From NCBI GenBank assembly GCA_002255585.1, contig NCBJ01000005.1, positions 1,066 through 65,065 on the forward strand: a DNA stretch of 64,000 nucleotides, in the 5' to 3' direction. Below, in pieces: positions 4,209-53,032 of this stretch (position 1 is the first letter of the stretch; every line of letters starts with the position of its first letter). Made by a program: the position numbers and the translations under genes. Source of the DNA: Parcubacteria group bacterium 21-54-25. GTDB taxonomy: Bacteria; Patescibacteriota; Minisyncoccia; Phycocordibacterales; Phycocordibacteraceae. The notes below the pieces were generated by a model. It ran no database searches. It was not told the origin of the DNA and saw only the letters and a program-made list of their open reading frames with translations.

Positions 4209-4819
4209 AAAACAATACGCACTACATGCACGCGCCGCGCGGCTTTACGTTAATTGAAATGTTGGTCACCATCGCTATAACGGCAGTGGTCATGACTGCG
4301 CTCACATTCCTCATTCAGTATTTCTATCGTACGAACACGTACGTTTTTGAGCAGACGGCCGCGGTTGAAAATGCGCGTAATGGAGTGCTGACGGCGATGC
4401 GCTATTTGCGCGAGGCCTCCTATGGTGCGGACGGTTCGTATCCTATTACGAGTGTCGCAACTTCGAGTGTCGAATTTTATGTTGATATCCAGGGGAATGG
4501 CATCGTTGACCGCGTGCACCTGTACCGCTTAGGCACCACGTTATATCAAGGGGTCACGGTGCCGGTGGGTAACCCGCTCTCGTATGTGGGTCAACCAGAA
4601 GCCACAACCACGCTTGCCACCTACGTGCGCAACAGTACCTCGACGCCGATTTTTCGCTATTACGATGCGAAAGGGAACGAACTCACGCCACCAATTACTG
4701 TTGCAAATATCGCATCGGTCAACACTACCGTTACCGTAAACCTAAACCCCGCGCGCGCACCGGAAGATTTCACTCTCTCAGTAGGCGCAACGCTGCGTAA
4801 CTTGCGTGCTGCGCCCTAG
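4205..4819 (+). CDS. Type IV pilin / pseudopilin (prepilin N-terminal methylation motif)
   Basis: HAPRG|FTLIEMLVTIAITAVV canonical GFTLIE motif; ATGA overlap with upstream stop; alternative start ATG 4226 gives 6-aa leader. Confidence 0.75.
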   Translation: MKNNTHYMHAPRGFTLIEMLVTIAITAVVMTALTFLIQYFYRTNTYVFEQTAAVENARNGVLTAMRYLREASYGADGSYPITSVATSSVEFYVDIQGNGIVDRVHLYRLGTTLYQGVTVPVGNPLSYVGQPEATTTLATYVRNSTSTPIFRYYDAKGNELTPPITVANIASVNTTVTVNLNPARAPEDFTLSVGATLRNLRAAP

Positions 4820-6308
4820 AGGCATTCCTTACATCATGCCGCCTACCCTGCACAAACGACGCGCTATCATACACGGTATGGGTACCACACCTCAGCGCGG
4901 CTCTATCATGCTTCTCGCGCTCGTGTTTGGCGCGATATTCCTCATGGTATTTTCCGGTTTATCCGGGTACGTGCTGGTCGAAAATAATTTTGAAATGTTT
5001 ACTCGAGCGCAAAGCGAGGCGGTCGCCATCGCGGAAGCGGGCCTTGAATATTACCGCTGGCACCTCGCACACTTTCCAACCGATTTGCAAAACGGTACCG
5101 GGCAGCCGGGGCCCTACACCATCACCTACTCTGACCCGCAGAGCGGTGCTACCGTGGGTACCTATACGCTCAATATCACCGGCAACCAGTCCTGCGGCCA
5201 AACGACGTCAATTGACATTACATCAACCGGTAGGCCAGCAGACAACCCCACGGTCTCGCAAACACTCATTGCGCGCTATGCACAACCAACCGTTGCAAAA
5301 TATGATTTCATTTCAAACGCAGGGGTGTGGATAGGTACTGGTGACGCGGTGCACGGTCCCTACCATTCAAATAGCGGCGTGCGTATGGATGGCACGAGCA
5401 ATGCGCCCATTACCAGTTCGCTCGCGTCGTGGACGTGCACCTCCTCATTTGGCTGTTCGCCAAGCCAGACGGAGCCGGGAGTATTCGGAAGCGGCTCCAA
5501 CCAAACCCTTTGGCAGTATCCGACATCGCAAGTTGATTTTGGCGCCATCGCCGCAAACTTTCCATCACTGAAGTCTATCGCGCAATCTAGTGGCATCTAC
5601 CTGCCGCGCTACAGCACGGGTAACAGCAACTCAAGCGCCTACCACAAGGGCTACCACCTCATTTTTAATGCAGACGGTACGGTTACTATAGACCGTGTTA
5701 CCGCACAGAAGACCTCAAACGTGGGCCTTCTTGATAGCGGTACTCTCGGAAATGACTACGCGCTGATTAATAATGAGACGGCATACGAGACGCTCAAAAT
5801 TCCCTCTGCGTGTGGGCTCATCTTTGTGGAAGACAACACGTGGGTGAGCGGCGTTATTCCCGCACAGGTTACCCTTGTCGTCGCAAATGTTTCGAACACG
5901 GGCGTTACCCCTGACGCATTTTTGCCAGGGAACATAACCTATGCCTCGGGGAATGGCTCGGATGGCTTCACACTCATCGCGCAGCACGATATTTTAATTA
6001 CACCCGATTCTCCACAGAACATGACCCTCGATGGGGTGTACGTAGCGCAGAGCGGCGCGTTTGGCAGGAATTATTACGGCAGTACATCCAATAGTTCGCA
6101 ATATGAGCCACGCGGCACGTTAACGACGGTCGGGACTATTGTCTCGGCGCTGCAGTCTGCGACAACCTGGGTAAATAATAGTGGACAACCGATAGGCGGA
6201 TACGCGAGCACTATAGACTACCCCGATCAACAGTTAGCCCAAAATCCACCGCCGTTTACTCCGGTGCTCTCGTCCGACTACCAGTTCGTTAACTGGCGAC
6301 AACAGTAG
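4806..6308 (+). CDS. PilX-like minor pilin / pilus-associated protein (N-terminal QRGS + hydrophobic segment)
   Basis: TTPQRGSIMLLALVFGAIFLMVF resembles PilX_N; GTG at 4806 overlaps previous gene, ATG 4836 or 4878 more likely starts; large Gly/Thr-rich extracellular part. Confidence 0.5.
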   Translation: MLRPRGIPYIMPPTLHKRRAIIHGMGTTPQRGSIMLLALVFGAIFLMVFSGLSGYVLVENNFEMFTRAQSEAVAIAEAGLEYYRWHLAHFPTDLQNGTGQPGPYTITYSDPQSGATVGTYTLNITGNQSCGQTTSIDITSTGRPADNPTVSQTLIARYAQPTVAKYDFISNAGVWIGTGDAVHGPYHSNSGVRMDGTSNAPITSSLASWTCTSSFGCSPSQTEPGVFGSGSNQTLWQYPTSQVDFGAIAANFPSLKSIAQSSGIYLPRYSTGNSNSSAYHKGYHLIFNADGTVTIDRVTAQKTSNVGLLDSGTLGNDYALINNETAYETLKIPSACGLIFVEDNTWVSGVIPAQVTLVVANVSNTGVTPDAFLPGNITYASGNGSDGFTLIAQHDILITPDSPQNMTLDGVYVAQSGAFGRNYYGSTSNSSQYEPRGTLTTVGTIVSALQSATTWVNNSGQPIGGYASTIDYPDQQLAQNPPPFTPVLSSDYQFVNWRQQ

Positions 6309-9409: not shown

Positions 9410-9526
9410 GGGTCTTATAGTACCGCACGCTCCGGTACCCACCCACTCTTTACAAACACGCACGCTCGTGTTATGAAATACACAGAAAGAACGCACGCAT
9501 TTCGCTTGCGGCACGGGAGAAATAAC

Positions 9527-12047: not shown

Positions 12048-12064
12048 TACCGCGCACGAATCCG

Positions 12065-12128
12065 CACAGCAGAAAAAGTGACCACTCCGGGGCGTTTGCC
12101 CAAGTCTTAGTCACTTTTTCTGCTGTGC
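12065..12128. repeat. Perfect 18-bp inverted repeat (stem) with 28-nt loop between recJ and rnhA
   Basis: GCACAGCAGAAAAAGTGA ... TCACTTTTTCTGCTGTGC. Confidence 0.7.
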
Positions 12129-12171
12129 AGGGTTTGCGAAACGCCCGTCATCGCACTGGTATACTGCACGC

Positions 12172-19715: not shown

Positions 19716-19787
19716 AATAGATAAGATACTTACCTATTTGCCTTTTGTTGTCAAGTCGCTCGGTTGTGGGGCGGGCGTCCGCTCTTT

Positions 19788-19804
19788 GACCAACTAGGTC
19801 AAGA
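19788..19804. promoter_or_regulatory. Perfect palindrome TTGACC-aacta-GGTCAA upstream of marR (candidate operator)
   Basis: 6-bp arms, 5-bp spacer, 73 bp upstream of marR ATG. Confidence 0.35.
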
Positions 19805-20013
19805 GATCGTGGTTAGAGGAGAGAGTTTTTTGTTTTCATACGACAATGTATCGTACCCAAACAGATCTCACACGATCCCTTGACCCGACTGACCAATTCG
19901 ACCCACCGCACAACAGGGCTTCGCCACCACACCCCTCTTTCCTGTTTCGCTCTTTTGAGCTCATCAGCGCGAGCACACACTCGCGGACAGAGGGGAGCAG
20001 CGCTCCCCCGTAT

Positions 20014-20214
20014 TTAGTGCCGTCGTCGGTTTCCGCCTCGGATCGCATTTCCGAGGGTCACGAGTGCTCCGCCGACCGCATGGCGCACGAAACGCAAGGT
20101 CGCGCGCAGCGGCCAGAGCGCAACCGCGCCGGCACCTCGGTGCCCGCGAAACACAAACGCCAGTCCCGCTACCAGAATCCAAATTGCAAGCACGAGGACA
20201 ACGTTGTTGTGCAT
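20014..20214 (-). CDS. Small single-TM protein (66 aa)
   Basis: AAAGGAGA SD 5 nt before ATG 20214; MHNNVVLVLAIWILVAGLAFVF; lies directly downstream of 45-bp repeat copy 1. Confidence 0.4.
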   Translation of the reverse strand: MHNNVVLVLAIWILVAGLAFVFRGHRGAGAVALWPLRATLRFVRHAVGGALVTLGNAIRGGNRRRH

Positions 20215-20281: not shown

Positions 20282-20326
20282 ATCTCTTTGGAAACTCGAA
20301 CGCGTGCTCAAGTTCCCAAAAGATAG
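20282..20326. repeat. 45-bp perfect direct repeat, copy 1 (internal dyad around ACGCGT)
   Basis: ATCTCTTTGGAAACTCGAACGCGTGCTCAAGTTCCCAAAAGATAG identical to 20957-21001. Confidence 0.9.
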
Positions 20327-20397
20327 GACGAGCAACAGATTCCTCTGAAGCTCGCCCAATAAACCAGTGGAGATATCGCATCTCCACATCGAAAGAA

Positions 20398-20931
20398 CTA
20401 TACTAGTTTCGCCGTCGAGAGGCCCATACCGAGGGCCTCCTCGACAGTAATTTTTTTTCCATGCAGTCCGGGCGTTGCCTGGACGCTGCTCGGGCGGACC
20501 GGCTCGCCCGGGTGCACGGTGAAGACGATCTCGCGACCGTCTTCCTCCCCGACGATGAGGACAAGGAAGTCAACATCGTCACCCCGGACGCCCTCTACAA
20601 CCGCCGACACCCGGCCGGTGCCCTTACGGTCGTCGAGGGTGACGGTGGTTCCGGCGGGTAACTCCGCCAGAGGCTTGACCCCGAGGAGCCCGCGAAGGCT
20701 CCGCGTCCGAAAGGCCGTGCAGCCCTCCGAAATAGCCGGATGGGAGTACGCCTCCCACTCCGCCTCAAGGAGCGCTTGCTCCAACTCCTCAGGGGTGCTC
20801 ACACCTAAAATCACCGACCCGACCCCGCCGCCAGGAAGACGCTGCTCGAGCGTCTTCCGCCAATATTGTGCGTCTACCACCTTGGTAAACGCAATTGCGG
20901 TTACTACTACCTTCTTTCCTTTCATGTTCAT
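20398..20931 (-). CDS. Hypothetical protein (177 aa, acidic)
   Basis: GAGAGGTG SD 4 nt before ATG 20931; flanked by the two 45-bp repeat copies. Confidence 0.5.
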   Translation of the reverse strand: MNMKGKKVVVTAIAFTKVVDAQYWRKTLEQRLPGGGVGSVILGVSTPEELEQALLEAEWEAYSHPAISEGCTAFRTRSLRGLLGVKPLAELPAGTTVTLDDRKGTGRVSAVVEGVRGDDVDFLVLIVGEEDGREIVFTVHPGEPVRPSSVQATPGLHGKKITVEEALGMGLSTAKLV

Positions 20932-20956
20932 GTTGCACCTCTCTTTTTGAAGAATT

Positions 20957-21001
20957 ATCTCTTTGGAAACTCGAACGCGTGCTCAAGTTCCCAAAAGATA
21001 G
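20957..21001. repeat. 45-bp perfect direct repeat, copy 2
   Basis: Identical to 20282-20326; 25 bp upstream of the 20931 start. Confidence 0.9.
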
Positions 21002-21034
21002 CCTGACTCGATACAAACAAAGCACCGAGTCAGG
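21002..21034 (-). terminator. Hairpin CCTGACTCG-15nt-CGAGTCAGG downstream of minus gene 21050-21499
   Basis: 9-bp perfect stem immediately after stop codon. Confidence 0.4.
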
Positions 21035-21049
21035 CAAGAACAACATGAG

Positions 21050-21499
21050 TCAGTCGTCGTAGGCTCCGCTGAGCTCTACGAAGCCCTCCTCAACCGGAAA
21101 CTCAGACATGTGATCATCGGCAGTGGTGTCCCACCGCCAGTCTTTCGAGGACTCCACCATCAGGAGTCCTCGCTGCTCCGCTTCGCGGAACAGCGCCCTA
21201 AAGGACTCCGATAAGGTACCGTGGAAGTTCAGGGCGTGCCGCCTGCCGTCAAACTCCACGGTCACACTCACGAGCCCTTCTTGCCCCGGCCCCTCCAAGA
21301 GCGTATGGAGAACCAGTCTCCATACATTTGGCGGCTCATGCCGCCCCATTTTCAATACGATCTGCCCCGGGGAGCAGATCAGCTCTTCTCCCTCGTTGCT
21401 TCTCAGGTCGGCCGCGAGGCCGGCCCCGATACCCACCAGGAGCTCTACGAGCTCCTGGTACTGCCGCCTCGTGGCGGCCACGGTCGTGTGAACTTTCAT
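21050..21499 (-). CDS. Hypothetical protein (149 aa, acidic C-terminus)
   Basis: GGAGGA SD 3 nt before ATG 21499; GC-rich codon usage. Confidence 0.5.
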   Translation of the reverse strand: MKVHTTVAATRRQYQELVELLVGIGAGLAADLRSNEGEELICSPGQIVLKMGRHEPPNVWRLVLHTLLEGPGQEGLVSVTVEFDGRRHALNFHGTLSESFRALFREAEQRGLLMVESSKDWRWDTTADDHMSEFPVEEGFVELSGAYDD

Positions 21500-21829: not shown

Positions 21830-22000
21830 CAACGAAAAATGACTGGCTCTAGTAGGAGAGCCAGTCATTTTTCAGTCTGGAAACTTCGGGGACGCCGCAT
21901 ATCGTATGCTTTGATCGCGTTCTCCCTAAGACTCTCTTCTCTAAGAAATCATCTTTTATGTTGATTTGTAAGGTTCTTTCGTGCCCGCGCTCTTTCTTTG
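21830..22000 (-). ncRNA. Candidate ~170-nt small RNA (promoter-to-terminator unit with no ORF longer than 11 codons)
   Basis: Minus-strand TTGACA(22036-22031)-17 nt-TGcTAATAT(22013-22008) extended -10 promoter; intrinsic terminator 21836-21872; AT-rich 670-bp noncoding gap. Confidence 0.35.
21836..21872. terminator. Bidirectional intrinsic terminator
   Basis: AAAAATGACTGGCTCT-agtagg-AGAGCCAGTCATTTTT, 15-bp perfect stem flanked by A/T tracts. Confidence 0.7.
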
Positions 22001-22007
22001 TGTCTGT

Positions 22008-22036
22008 ATATTAGCATGGACAGTATATTTTGTCAA
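22008..22036 (-). promoter_or_regulatory. Near-consensus sigma70-type promoter (minus strand)
   Basis: TTGACA / 17-nt spacer / TG-n-TAATAT. Confidence 0.5.
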
Positions 22037-22172
22037 GTGCTTTTCCTCGGTATTCCTGCGGGCTTGTAACCTCATTACCTGCCACAATATTAGCACGAGT
22101 ATTAATATATGTCAAGCCCTCGACCGGTGCCGTAAGGCATCATCGATCAGGGGCTTGTTTTTAGCTTTTTAT

Positions 22173-24854: not shown

Positions 24855-25523
24855 TCAATGTATCGTGGCTATTTGTTTTTCAAGCCACGCAATAACTTTT
24901 TTGTAGTCTGAAACAAGGATCTGGTGCCGGAGCACGAAGGGTAGGTAGTACTCTCGTGTCTCCGTTACCTTCATCACTACTTTCTTGCGCGGTATGATGT
25001 CGCACGAAAGACTCATGAGGTTGTCGAGACGGTCGGGAAGCTTCGTTTCAAACAACACCCGTTGGCGCGCAAGATCACGGAAGCGCTGGTGGTAGATGCG
25101 GTGCGCCTCATCACTTGAACGCCCTTCCTTGGTGCGTGGCGCGGACACCGCCGATACAATTGCCTCTACACCGTAGTTGAACTCGCGCTCCACAAACTCG
25201 CTCGTCCATATACCAAGCTCTTGTTCTTCATCAAACTCTCGGTTGTCGTGCAACAGACACGCAGTCAGCGTGTGCGCATCGCGCACCCCGACACGTTCAA
25301 GCGCAATAAGCGCGACGCGGCGCGGGTGTTCGATATACGGTTCTCCACGCAGTCGGCGCACGTCTGCAAACAGTTCCTCAGTCAAATCATGCGCTTTCAC
25401 GATCATTGCGTATTCAGCACTTTTCTTTAGAAAGTGCCGCCGCACGTGCTTCAGAAACGCTTCTCGACTTTCGGCGTTCTCGAGGAACGCCATTCGGTGC
25501 GGGTAAAACCCGTATGCGACCAT
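24855..25523 (-). CDS. HD-domain protein with RelA/SpoT-type (p)ppGpp hydrolase fold
   Basis: YIEHPRRVALIALERVGVRDAHTLTACLLHD resembles SpoT HD motif; AAGGAGG SD 6 nt before ATG 25523. Confidence 0.6.
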   Translation of the reverse strand: MVAYGFYPHRMAFLENAESREAFLKHVRRHFLKKSAEYAMIVKAHDLTEELFADVRRLRGEPYIEHPRRVALIALERVGVRDAHTLTACLLHDNREFDEEQELGIWTSEFVEREFNYGVEAIVSAVSAPRTKEGRSSDEAHRIYHQRFRDLARQRVLFETKLPDRLDNLMSLSCDIIPRKKVVMKVTETREYYLPFVLRHQILVSDYKKVIAWLEKQIATIH

Positions 25524-50870: not shown

Positions 50871-50957
50871 TTTTCAAAATCATTCAGCTCACACACAACC
50901 CGCCAACACACTGGCAGCGTGTATACATGCTGAATGAAGGAAGTCTAACTCCCTTCA

Positions 50958-51014
50958 TTTTATTGATCCCCTGCTTCGTTTCCTGCCGTGAGTAAGGTTA
51001 AACCTTACTCACGG
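50958..51014. repeat. 57-bp repeat element copy 1, contains perfect 14-bp palindrome CCGTGAGTAAGGTT/AACCTTACTCACGG
   Basis: 55/57 identical to 52976-53032. Confidence 0.85.
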
Positions 51015-52934: not shown

Positions 52935-52975
52935 GACTTTGAAGCAAAGCCGCAGTGAGACCGTTCCAGCCGGTA

Positions 52976-53032
52976 TTTTATTGATCCCATGCTTCGTTTC
53001 CTGCCGTGAGTAAGGTTTAACCTTACTCACGG
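52976..53032. repeat. 57-bp repeat element copy 2 (12-bp palindrome)
   Basis: Differs from copy 1 at 2 positions. Confidence 0.85.

Follow-up and report, generated by a model that had tools for sequence, protein, structure and literature searches.

What is the function of a 45-nucleotide (nt) palindromic repeat that is found twice, in front of two consecutive genes, in the genome of Parcubacteria group bacterium 21-54-25, a member of the candidate phyla radiation (CPR)? The DNA analyzed here, referred to throughout as the window, is a 64,000-nt stretch of this genome (assembly GCA_002255585.1, contig NCBJ01000005.1, positions 1,066 to 65,065 of the forward strand), in which both copies of the repeat lie within a block of three minus-strand genes close to a gene for a MarR-type regulator. 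An initial annotation of this DNA proposed that the repeat is a duplicated promoter/operator cassette that defines a small regulon, possibly controlled by the adjacent MarR. The analysis described below leads us to lean, with modest confidence, towards a different answer, namely that the 45-mer is an RNA stem-loop module which punctuates the transcript of an acquired gene block and, as DNA, provides a homology tract for cassette exchange, and that it is not a DNA operator.

The repeat and the gene block that carries it

The features of the block are listed in the order in which they would be transcribed; energies after the genes are those of the duplex between the Shine-Dalgarno sequence (SD) and the anti-SD.

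21050-21499, minus strand: 149-amino-acid (149-aa) orphan gene, first in the block, with a strong SD (GAGGAGGA; -11.6 kcal/mol) and a GC content at third codon positions (GC3) of 0.76
21001-21035, minus strand: hairpin A, GC-rich, 14 bp, cassette-specific, abutting copy 2 of the repeat (terminator-like scan match, spacer fold)
20957-21001, minus strand: copy 2 of the 45-nt repeat, transcribed before copy 1; it lies between the 149-aa and 177-aa genes and forms a stem-loop on the sense strand (exact match, RNA fold)
20398-20931, minus strand: 177-aa gene between the repeat copies, member of an accessory family (homolog searches), with an SD of -12.0 kcal/mol and a GC3 of 0.72
20367-20387, minus strand: hairpin B (GUGGAGAU-GCGAU-AUCUCCAC), 10 nt past the stop codon of the 177-aa gene (terminator scan, spacer fold)
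20326-20357, minus strand: hairpin B' (GGGCGAGC...GCUCGUCC), cassette-specific, abutting copy 1 of the repeat (spacer fold)
20282-20326, minus strand: copy 1 of the 45-nt repeat, transcribed after copy 2; it lies between the 177-aa and 66-aa genes and forms a stem-loop on the sense strand (exact match, RNA and DNA folds)
20014-20214, minus strand: third gene, an open reading frame (ORF) for a predicted 66-aa small membrane protein with an Arg-rich tail and a strong SD (AAGGAGAA; -9.3 kcal/mol)

An exact-match scan finds the 45-mer (ATCTCTTTGGAAACTCGAACGCGTGCTCAAGTTCCCAAAAGATAG) twice, in agreement with the initial annotation that the copies are 100% identical and have unrelated flanks; identity ends sharply at the borders of the 45-mer. 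The two copies share one orientation, occupy the two spacers of the three co-directional genes, and are indeed placed shortly upstream of two start codons, with 25 nt between the end of copy 2 and the ATG at 20931 and 67 nt between the end of copy 1 and the ATG at 20214. No further match with up to 3 mismatches was found in the window, where 100 shuffles gave an expectation of 0, and no third or degenerate copy was found when an extra ~10.6 kb of the contig was included, which brings the source-genome search space to ~75 kb. The absence of more copies from these ~75 kb, at random positions away from gene starts or otherwise, suggests that the 45-mer is not a generic interspersed repeat, the outcome by which the initial annotation would have fallen. 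The imperfect dyad reported inside the repeat is present, but it is larger than described, since the whole 45-mer forms a single hairpin.

Within the repeat, 19 pairs make up this hairpin, of which 15 are Watson-Crick; a single A is bulged, and the loop comprises 4 nt. All 4 of the non-Watson-Crick positions are G.U on the minus (gene-sense) strand and A.C mismatches on the plus strand. When folded alone as RNA, the 45-mer reaches -21.8 kcal/mol on the sense strand versus -10.3 on the other strand. With 10-nt flanks, the minus and plus strands of copy 2 reach -24.2 kcal/mol (z -4.45) and -12.1 kcal/mol (z -0.78), those of copy 1 reach -31.8 kcal/mol (z -5.35) and -18.1 kcal/mol (z -2.24), and folding with DNA parameters keeps the asymmetry (-9.3 versus -5.1). 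By our calculation, the G.U pattern has a probability of ~0.0015 under uniform mismatch types and of ~0.02 once a realistic bias towards transitions is allowed for. The strand asymmetry is therefore supportive of an element that works at the level of the transcript, without being decisive, and the combination of a helix with 20-bp arms and strand-specific G.U pairs points to an element that acts as a single strand. In addition, with 19-20 pairs and one bulge, the hairpin has the length and regularity of an RNase III-type hairpin (at least 20 bp, or two turns, of mostly regular double-stranded RNA).

The surroundings of the repeat also suggest a function in the transcript. Both copies directly follow a different, gene-specific GC-rich hairpin (A or B') whose last pair includes the initial C of the repeat. 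The U-rich sequence with which the repeat begins (UAUCUUUU) is therefore preceded by a strong stem; hairpin A together with this 5' arm of the 45-mer was flagged as intrinsic-terminator-like in the scan. On the sense strand, both spacers fold over their whole length into a chain of stem-loops, with energies of -55.2 kcal/mol (z -6.83) for the copy 2 spacer and -67.5 kcal/mol (z -6.39) for the copy 1 spacer. The 45-mer is not a terminator by itself, because its stem is followed by AAAGAGAU and then by non-U sequence, so that what lies downstream is A-rich and not U-rich. An energy-based survey of hairpins across the window was too noisy in this GC range to inform; a very long (~35-bp) hairpin at 12055-12137 on the minus strand was picked up as a spurious match to a miRNA family.

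A consensus scan of the gene strand found no sigma-70-like -35/-10 elements in or beside either copy, and the best -10 candidate by eye, GATAAT at the edge of copy 2, lacks a -35 and is absent from copy 1. The promoters of this organism are recognizable, since the same scan detected two textbook promoters (TTGACA-N17-TAATAT, with TG) ~1 kb away at 22115-22008. These tandem promoters (22115-22087 and 22036-22008, minus strand) lie inside a 30-nt direct repeat, and ~150 nt further on there is a terminator that consists of a perfect 17-bp hairpin and a U tract (21873-21834); the element as a whole (21834-22115), for which there was no Rfam match, is a candidate for an unannotated small RNA or island leader.

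Several lines of evidence bear on the origin of the three genes. The host genome is essentially SD-less, in that the 45 large ORFs of the window have a median anti-SD energy of -0.9 kcal/mol and only one other large-ORF start, that of an HD-domain gene (24855-25523, minus strand; -11.2 kcal/mol), is comparable in strength to those of the block. The claim of the initial annotation that these genes have strong SDs unlike those of core genes is thus borne out by the duplex energies, and the difference is more striking than was stated. The GC content of the block is 0.58-0.65, versus ~0.47-0.56 in its flanks, and its GC3 is 0.66-0.76 versus 0.60. A search of 5.8 billion clustered proteins with the 149-aa protein found only itself, a HMMER scan of 1.84 billion representatives gave weak partial matches only, and none of the three proteins had a match in Pfam, PHROG or PADLOC. 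The 66-aa ORF is called as a gene in two public assemblies. The 177-aa protein, in contrast, belongs to a family with more than 100 loci (L001-L114) in CPR bacteria, Clostridia and large phages, conserved motifs (DDRKGTG and HPGEPV), and a scattered distribution that spans CPR lineages, Clostridia, Alphaproteobacteria, Nitrospirae and Bacteroidales as well as viral contigs of 57-241 kb. Its AlphaFold2 model is of very high confidence (pLDDT 94.9) and has no structural neighbors in PDB or BFVD. The block, which is bordered by a SOD gene and by marR, is absent from three related genomes that keep marR and the adjoining MFP and RND efflux genes; these relatives are only 55-58% identical and share no more of the neighborhood than marR-MFP-RND. 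From the strong SDs, the high GC and GC3, the absence from relatives, the patchy distribution of the 177-aa family and the orphan status of the 149-aa protein, we conclude that the sequence of the block marks it as foreign, horizontally acquired and phage-like.

Searches for relatives of the 45-mer itself returned little. No match was found in 185,579 species-representative genomes (GTDB) or in JGI metagenomes when changes at the G.U positions and in the loop were allowed, and Rfam gave none at E values up to 10; a known RNA family was rejected as the identity of this plain helix, which has neither ribozyme nor riboswitch features. A viral contig (L034) contains a very similar 15-bp stem in an analogous spacer, which was not counted as a homolog and may be a chance match, because the search pattern forced most of the similarity and, by our estimate, a few such matches are expected among natural hairpins. 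A CRISPR-like mini-array was set aside in view of the 630-nt spacing with a gene in between, type III toxin-antitoxin repeats because the copies are not tandem, and the template and variable repeats of a diversity-generating retroelement because there is no reverse transcriptase and there are no A-specific differences. An assembly artefact was also set aside, given that the operon is coherent and identical in independent re-assemblies; to our knowledge, 45 nt is not a usual assembler k-mer size.

A hammerhead ribozyme and analogous arrays elsewhere

The end of the block contains a different type of RNA element, which provides a context for the 45-mer.

19991-20009, minus strand: GC-rich hairpin (GGGGGAGC-GCU-GCUCCCC), immediately 5' of the hammerhead (fold; same order in phage loci)
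19939-19993, minus strand: type III hammerhead ribozyme, just past the 66-aa gene (RF00008, 41.3 bits)

The match to RF00008 has an E value of 9e-7 in a 4-kb search and of 1.4e-5 for the whole window. The core is complete (CUGAUGA...GAAA), with C3-U4-G5-A6-N7-G8-A9, G12-A13-A14, the A15.1-U16.1 pair and a non-G at position 17 all in place, and it is accompanied by a GUC cleavage site with a predicted cut between 19986 and 19985, a stem I of 6-7 bp (CGCGAG(U)/(G)CUCGCG) and a stem II of GCUC-AAAA-GAGC. After self-cleavage, the GC-rich hairpin at 19991-20009 would be the 3'-terminal structure of the upstream mRNA. Downstream of the hammerhead there is an SD-like AGAGGGG, followed by a GTG mini-ORF of ~20 codons.

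Because the score of the window hammerhead does not reach the RF00008 gathering cutoff (48.5 bits), an independent comparison was made. The same core and stem II are present on 47 IMG/VR contigs (L118-L164), versus ~0.2 expected by our estimate, and define a phage-borne type III subfamily with a stem II of GCUC-NNNN-GAGC and a stem I loop of GUGU/GAGU. Among 21 non-redundant phage copies with the full architecture, stems I and III covary freely; loops close stems I and II, and stem III is open. Most phage copies of this subfamily sit 15-35 nt upstream of an SD and ATG. The phage loci have 2-4 hammerheads on one strand that bracket single genes, and a stem-loop directly 5' of the ribozyme that is itself repeated between spacers. 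All 16 of the phage-locus matches tested, from 7 loci, score 35-47.5 bits, so the RF00008 cutoff misses the copies tested from this subfamily, and default annotation would overlook them. A similar arrangement was described previously, in that multiple hammerheads flank prophage genes and were interpreted as cutting long transcripts into mRNAs of the length of one gene (Perreault et al., 2011; PMC3088659). By its sequence, the window hammerhead is a member of the phage-borne subfamily, is arranged as in those prophages, and is predicted to self-cleave. This locus therefore places a hammerhead ribozyme in a Parcubacteria genome; a literature search found no paper that pairs hammerheads with the CPR.

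Comparative analysis of the 177-aa family indicates that repeated spacer hairpins are not limited to the window. Many loci of the family have their own, unrelated, near-identical repeated spacer hairpins, which are usually more stable on the gene strand. For example, the repeats of L008, L036 and L037 (59-65 nt; -29 versus -21 kcal/mol) are found upstream of both the preceding gene and the homolog, though the copies come from near-identical strains and vary too little for covariation to be assessed. The repeat of L009 is 100 nt long with copies that are 99% identical, the two copies in L004 are 79% identical and keep the same fold through double changes, and L045, L052, L057 and L070, among others, also have locus-specific repeated spacer hairpins. 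Four further loci of the family (L044, L047, L049 and L103) have type III hammerheads.

L049 is the closest analogue of the window element that we found. Its small genes form a co-directional array, and every spacer contains a terminator-like hairpin, then a U tract that is also the 5' arm of a longer hairpin, and then, 30-40 nt on, an SD and ATG; in one spacer a hammerhead (46.4 bits) replaces the long hairpin. The long hairpin is represented by six diverged copies, whose consensus stem, at 20 pairs, is as long as that of the window element. In their alignment 91.7% of cells are paired and 5 pairs have compensatory changes. Neither the pairing score nor the covariation score is matched by any of 500 shuffles, and every shifted register gives a lower score. 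The L049 copies thus suggest that in such arrays it is the helix, and not its sequence, that is conserved, and that this helix is positionally interchangeable with a self-cleaving ribozyme.

Other features of these loci were observed in passing. L049 has two hydrophobic mini-ORFs of 32-33 codons (4816-4914 and 5034-5135), both ending in ...W(Y/R)YR and each followed by the same repeated spacer element; one of them is directly downstream of the hammerhead, and both recall the 66-aa protein of the window. A non-coding stretch downstream of the homolog (L008 1752-1900 and L009 5529-5700; CATACAGCGCGCTATAAA, CCATCAGCTAATCGGGGAAAAGGACAGC) is kept between these otherwise diverged loci and, while without an Rfam match, may be an RNA element of the 3' untranslated region. 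In L063, the homolog lies between two copies of a 16S rRNA 3' end (130-231 and 1458-1559; 102 nt, 96% identical), which suggests insertion at or within an rRNA operon. In L013, a Saccharibacteria genome, the homolog is in a segment of ~4.7 kb between a tRNA gene (4678-4761) and a 32-nt direct repeat of the tRNA 3' end (9422-9453), a layout that is the signature of an integrated mobile element.

Possible functions of the repeat

How might the 45-mer act? We propose that the three-gene block is read as one RNA, on which, in each spacer, the gene-specific hairpin and the U-rich beginning of the 45-mer would together act as a leaky terminator or attenuator and would leave the upstream 3' end protected. 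In RNA that reads through, the 20-bp helix would form and serve as a processing signal, a stability signal, or both; for example, it may be a site for an RNase III-type double-strand endonuclease, or provide a structured 5' end for the downstream cistron. The outcome would parallel that of self-cleavage by the hammerhead, in that gene-length mRNAs would be insulated from their neighbors. At the DNA level, the identical copies would form a homology tract through which the 177-aa cassette could have recombined in and from which it could loop out as a 675-bp circle. The least secure part of this proposal is the specific nuclease step.

A broader and rather doubtful generalization, which we put forward tentatively, is that accessory arrays of CPR bacteria and phages share an interchangeable slot in front of the SD. 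This slot would be filled either by a hammerhead or by its protein-dependent counterpart, a locus-specific ~20-bp hairpin that is cut by a host RNase specific for double-stranded RNA. Within each array the hairpin family would be kept uniform through concerted evolution, and the repeats would also be recombination handles that need no integrase and that carry single genes from one array to another. If this is true, these arrays would constitute a cassette system punctuated by ribozymes and hairpins that is distinct both from integrons and from promoter-bearing stem-loop cassettes of phages. Even without this generalization, if the 45-mer is indeed an RNA punctuation module, the locus described here would illustrate the way in which phage-type genes of foreign origin that depend on an SD are equipped for expression in a CPR host with otherwise very little use of SDs, with self-contained spacers that terminate, process and insulate the cistrons, one slot being occupied by a ribozyme and the others by a long hairpin. 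It would also join three sets of observations that are mostly treated apart: repeated spacer stem-loops of the phage type, hammerhead-flanked prophage genes, and integrase-free cassette shuffling.

Several points weigh against the proposal that the 45-mer is an RNA punctuation module. Co-transcription, processing and termination are each deduced, and RNase Y is the only RNase seen in the accessible sequence, in which rnc was not searched for. The G.U asymmetry is statistically modest, since four transition-type mismatches, once given, would all fall on one strand in 1 of 8 cases, and it cannot tell RNA from single-stranded DNA. The two copies in the window are identical and so provide no covariation, which means that the structural support comes from analogous, non-homologous hairpin families elsewhere. 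No recombinant allele, and no strain variant with an empty site or a deletion, was found in two other assemblies of this genome, which are identical at the locus. Finally, the host window contains a second two-copy hairpin repeat, which means that repeats of this kind may be common in these genomes in general, and their recurrence near the 177-aa family is not corrected for this background. The second repeat (50957-51014 and 52975-53032, plus strand; 58 nt, 97% identical, with a perfect 13-bp hairpin) brackets two bPH_2-domain genes, which, together with two additional ORFs, make up an insertion that separates rplB from rpsS in the ribosomal protein operon.

Of the alternatives, the one that best accommodates these observations, though we still judge it unlikely, is that the 45-mer is a recombination site or scar only, whether an att-like core, an attC-like site or a sequence duplicated when a 675-bp circle was inserted, which acts as folded single-stranded DNA or has no role at all, and none on RNA. 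It would account for identical copies that bracket exactly one promiscuous gene and lose identity at the edges of the 45-mer, and it draws on the insertion bracketed by the second repeat pair, on the L013 homolog, whose element has a duplicated tRNA 3' end at its borders, on the strand asymmetry that is also seen with DNA parameters, and on the precedent of phage stem-loop cassettes. However, no integrase or recombinase adjoins the block, where the neighbors are SOD and marR and the nearest rve-type gene is ~20 kb away, and the sequence departs from attC in having pyrimidines after GTT and a length of 45 nt, against a minimum of 57 nt. The repeats of L008, L004 and L049 also precede successive genes and do not bracket the homolog, and the L049 copies have diverged yet conserve their pairing, which implies selection on structure. 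A role in recombination is compatible with RNA punctuation and does not exclude it.

A second possibility, less probable still, is that the hairpin is an RNA operator for a protein encoded by the block or the host and controls translation or antitermination, so as to coordinate the two genes downstream, as do lambda nut boxB, HK022 put and the operators of phage coat proteins. A sense-strand hairpin just upstream of two SD-led genes fits such a role, recognition of a specific sequence would be in keeping with copies that are 100% identical, and the orphan 149-aa and Arg-rich 66-aa proteins lack an assigned function. The helix, however, includes neither the SD nor the start codon, and there is little specific surface for a protein on a plain 20-bp helix with a single bulge. 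Since the 177-aa family travels with unrelated hairpins in other loci, the 177-aa protein is not expected to be the hairpin binder.

The model of the initial annotation, in which a duplicated DNA promoter/operator is bound by MarR or another factor and forms a two-gene regulon, appears very unlikely. It was based on dyad symmetry, on positions upstream of two starts and on the nearby MarR gene, and what remains of it is a cis-element that occurs twice, each time ahead of one of two consecutive genes. The promoter part fails for want of a -35/-10 on the gene strand in a region where the scan detects canonical promoters, and copy 2 ends 25 nt before the ATG, which leaves no room for a promoter downstream of it. 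The operator part is at odds with the 20-bp arms and with imperfections that are strand-specific G.U pairs; a MarR-type operator is a short dyad of ~16-20 bp that overlaps a promoter, and here a 45-bp repeat with 20-bp arms has no detected promoter. As for MarR, its gene has a site of its own, which lies outside the block and is given for contrast.

19721-19754, minus strand: marR promoter (-35 TTGACA, 19749-19754) and inverted repeat GTAAGTATCTTAT (19721-19733), conserved in L115, L116 and L117

The marR gene (19715-19284) is the first of a marR-MFP-RND efflux unit that is conserved in these three related genomes, and the marR genes of all four Parcubacteria-type genomes have a TTGACA, then ~15-17 nt, then an inverted repeat (GTAAG-TAT-CTTAy) that overlaps the promoter, just before the start codon. 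This conserved inverted repeat, which is likely to be the predicted autoregulatory operator of MarR, bears no resemblance to the 45-mer, and the relatives keep the marR site without the 45-mer and without the island. The proposed regulon under the adjacent MarR was accordingly abandoned, because marR is tied to the efflux unit, has its own conserved operator-like repeat, and is found in relatives that lack the island. A palindrome specific to the window, TTGACC-N5-GGTCAA, is located slightly farther upstream of marR (19786-19802). In practical terms, operator-like palindromes beside regulator genes should be checked for strand-specific G.U pairs before they are called operators.

It is highly improbable that the 45-mer is a selfish palindromic element that was inserted twice and is functionless for the block, similar to repetitive extragenic palindromes (REPs), bacterial interspersed mosaic elements (BIMEs) or miniature inverted-repeat transposable elements, since its character as a short, imperfect, intergenic palindrome with identical copies is outweighed by the restriction of the two copies in ~75 kb to the same 2-kb foreign block and the same orientation, the lack of matches in the genome and metagenome searches, the absence of target-site duplications, of terminal inverted repeats beyond the hairpin and of a nearby RAYT or TnpA gene, and the same precise junction that both copies form with the preceding hairpin.

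Comparison with known systems

Intercistronic hairpins are found in several well-studied systems. In the early mRNA of phage T7, RNase III hairpins between cistrons are cleaved to give gene-length mRNAs with a protective terminal structure. The 45-mer resembles these sites in being an irregular hairpin of ~20 bp in an intercistronic spacer; it differs in that the sites in T7 contain characteristic internal loops and do not recur as identical copies, and in that cleavage of the 45-mer is a prediction. The stem-loops of REP/BIME elements, which block 3' exonucleases on RNA and stabilize upstream mRNA in operons such as malEFG, are likewise imperfect palindromes in intercistronic spacers. They occur in hundreds of copies genome-wide and are associated with the RAYT transposase, whereas the 45-mer has two copies in one foreign block and in the same orientation (in ~75 kb).

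The attC sites of integrons share with the 45-mer the properties of imperfect palindromes between promoterless, co-directional small cassettes and of strand-specific folding. However, the core sites R'' (RYYYAAC) and R' (GTTRRRY) are not present: the 45-mer reads TGGGAAC...GTTTCCA on the sense strand and TGGAAAC...GTTCCCA on the other, and the consensus fails because the purine/pyrimidine polarity is opposite, with pyrimidines, not purines, after GTT. In addition, attC sites are ~57-141 nt long and have extrahelical bases, while the 45-mer is 45 nt long with a single bulged A and is positioned upstream of an SD, not at the 3' end of a cassette beside an integrase. No integron integrase IntI was found among the genes called within +/-10 kb.

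A closer parallel is provided by the promoter-early stem-loops (PeSLs) of T4-type phages, which are stem-loop cassettes present in several copies on either side of ORFans (Arbiol et al., 2010, PMC2839356; Comeau et al., 2014, PMC4122927) and for which formation of mini-circles by recombination between flanking copies was shown experimentally (PMC2839356, PMC4122927). Like PeSLs, the copies of the 45-mer are short, near-identical intergenic repeats that form a stable stem-loop co-oriented with the genes, and they flank accessory genes in a variable region, as the 177-aa gene is bracketed, the orphan gene adjoins, and the block is absent from relatives. In both systems there is no dedicated recombinase, and identical copies of the 45-mer, like those of PeSLs, could loop out the intervening gene. 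Unlike the 45-mer, which lacks a detectable promoter, a PeSL combines a strong sigma-70 early promoter with a terminator stem-loop. The 45-mer also differs in its location in a CPR chromosome, its two copies, its longer hairpin (20 bp), the lack of a 3' U tract and its partnership with a hammerhead.

The hammerhead-flanked prophage genes (PMC3088659) share with this locus the placement of elements in successive spacers of co-directional, phage-type genes of variable identity, the difference being that two of the three spacer slots here are occupied by a plain 20-bp hairpin without catalytic-core features. The punctuation of phage gene cassettes in this style is therefore already known, and what is new here is that it is promoter-less and that it is found in a CPR chromosome.

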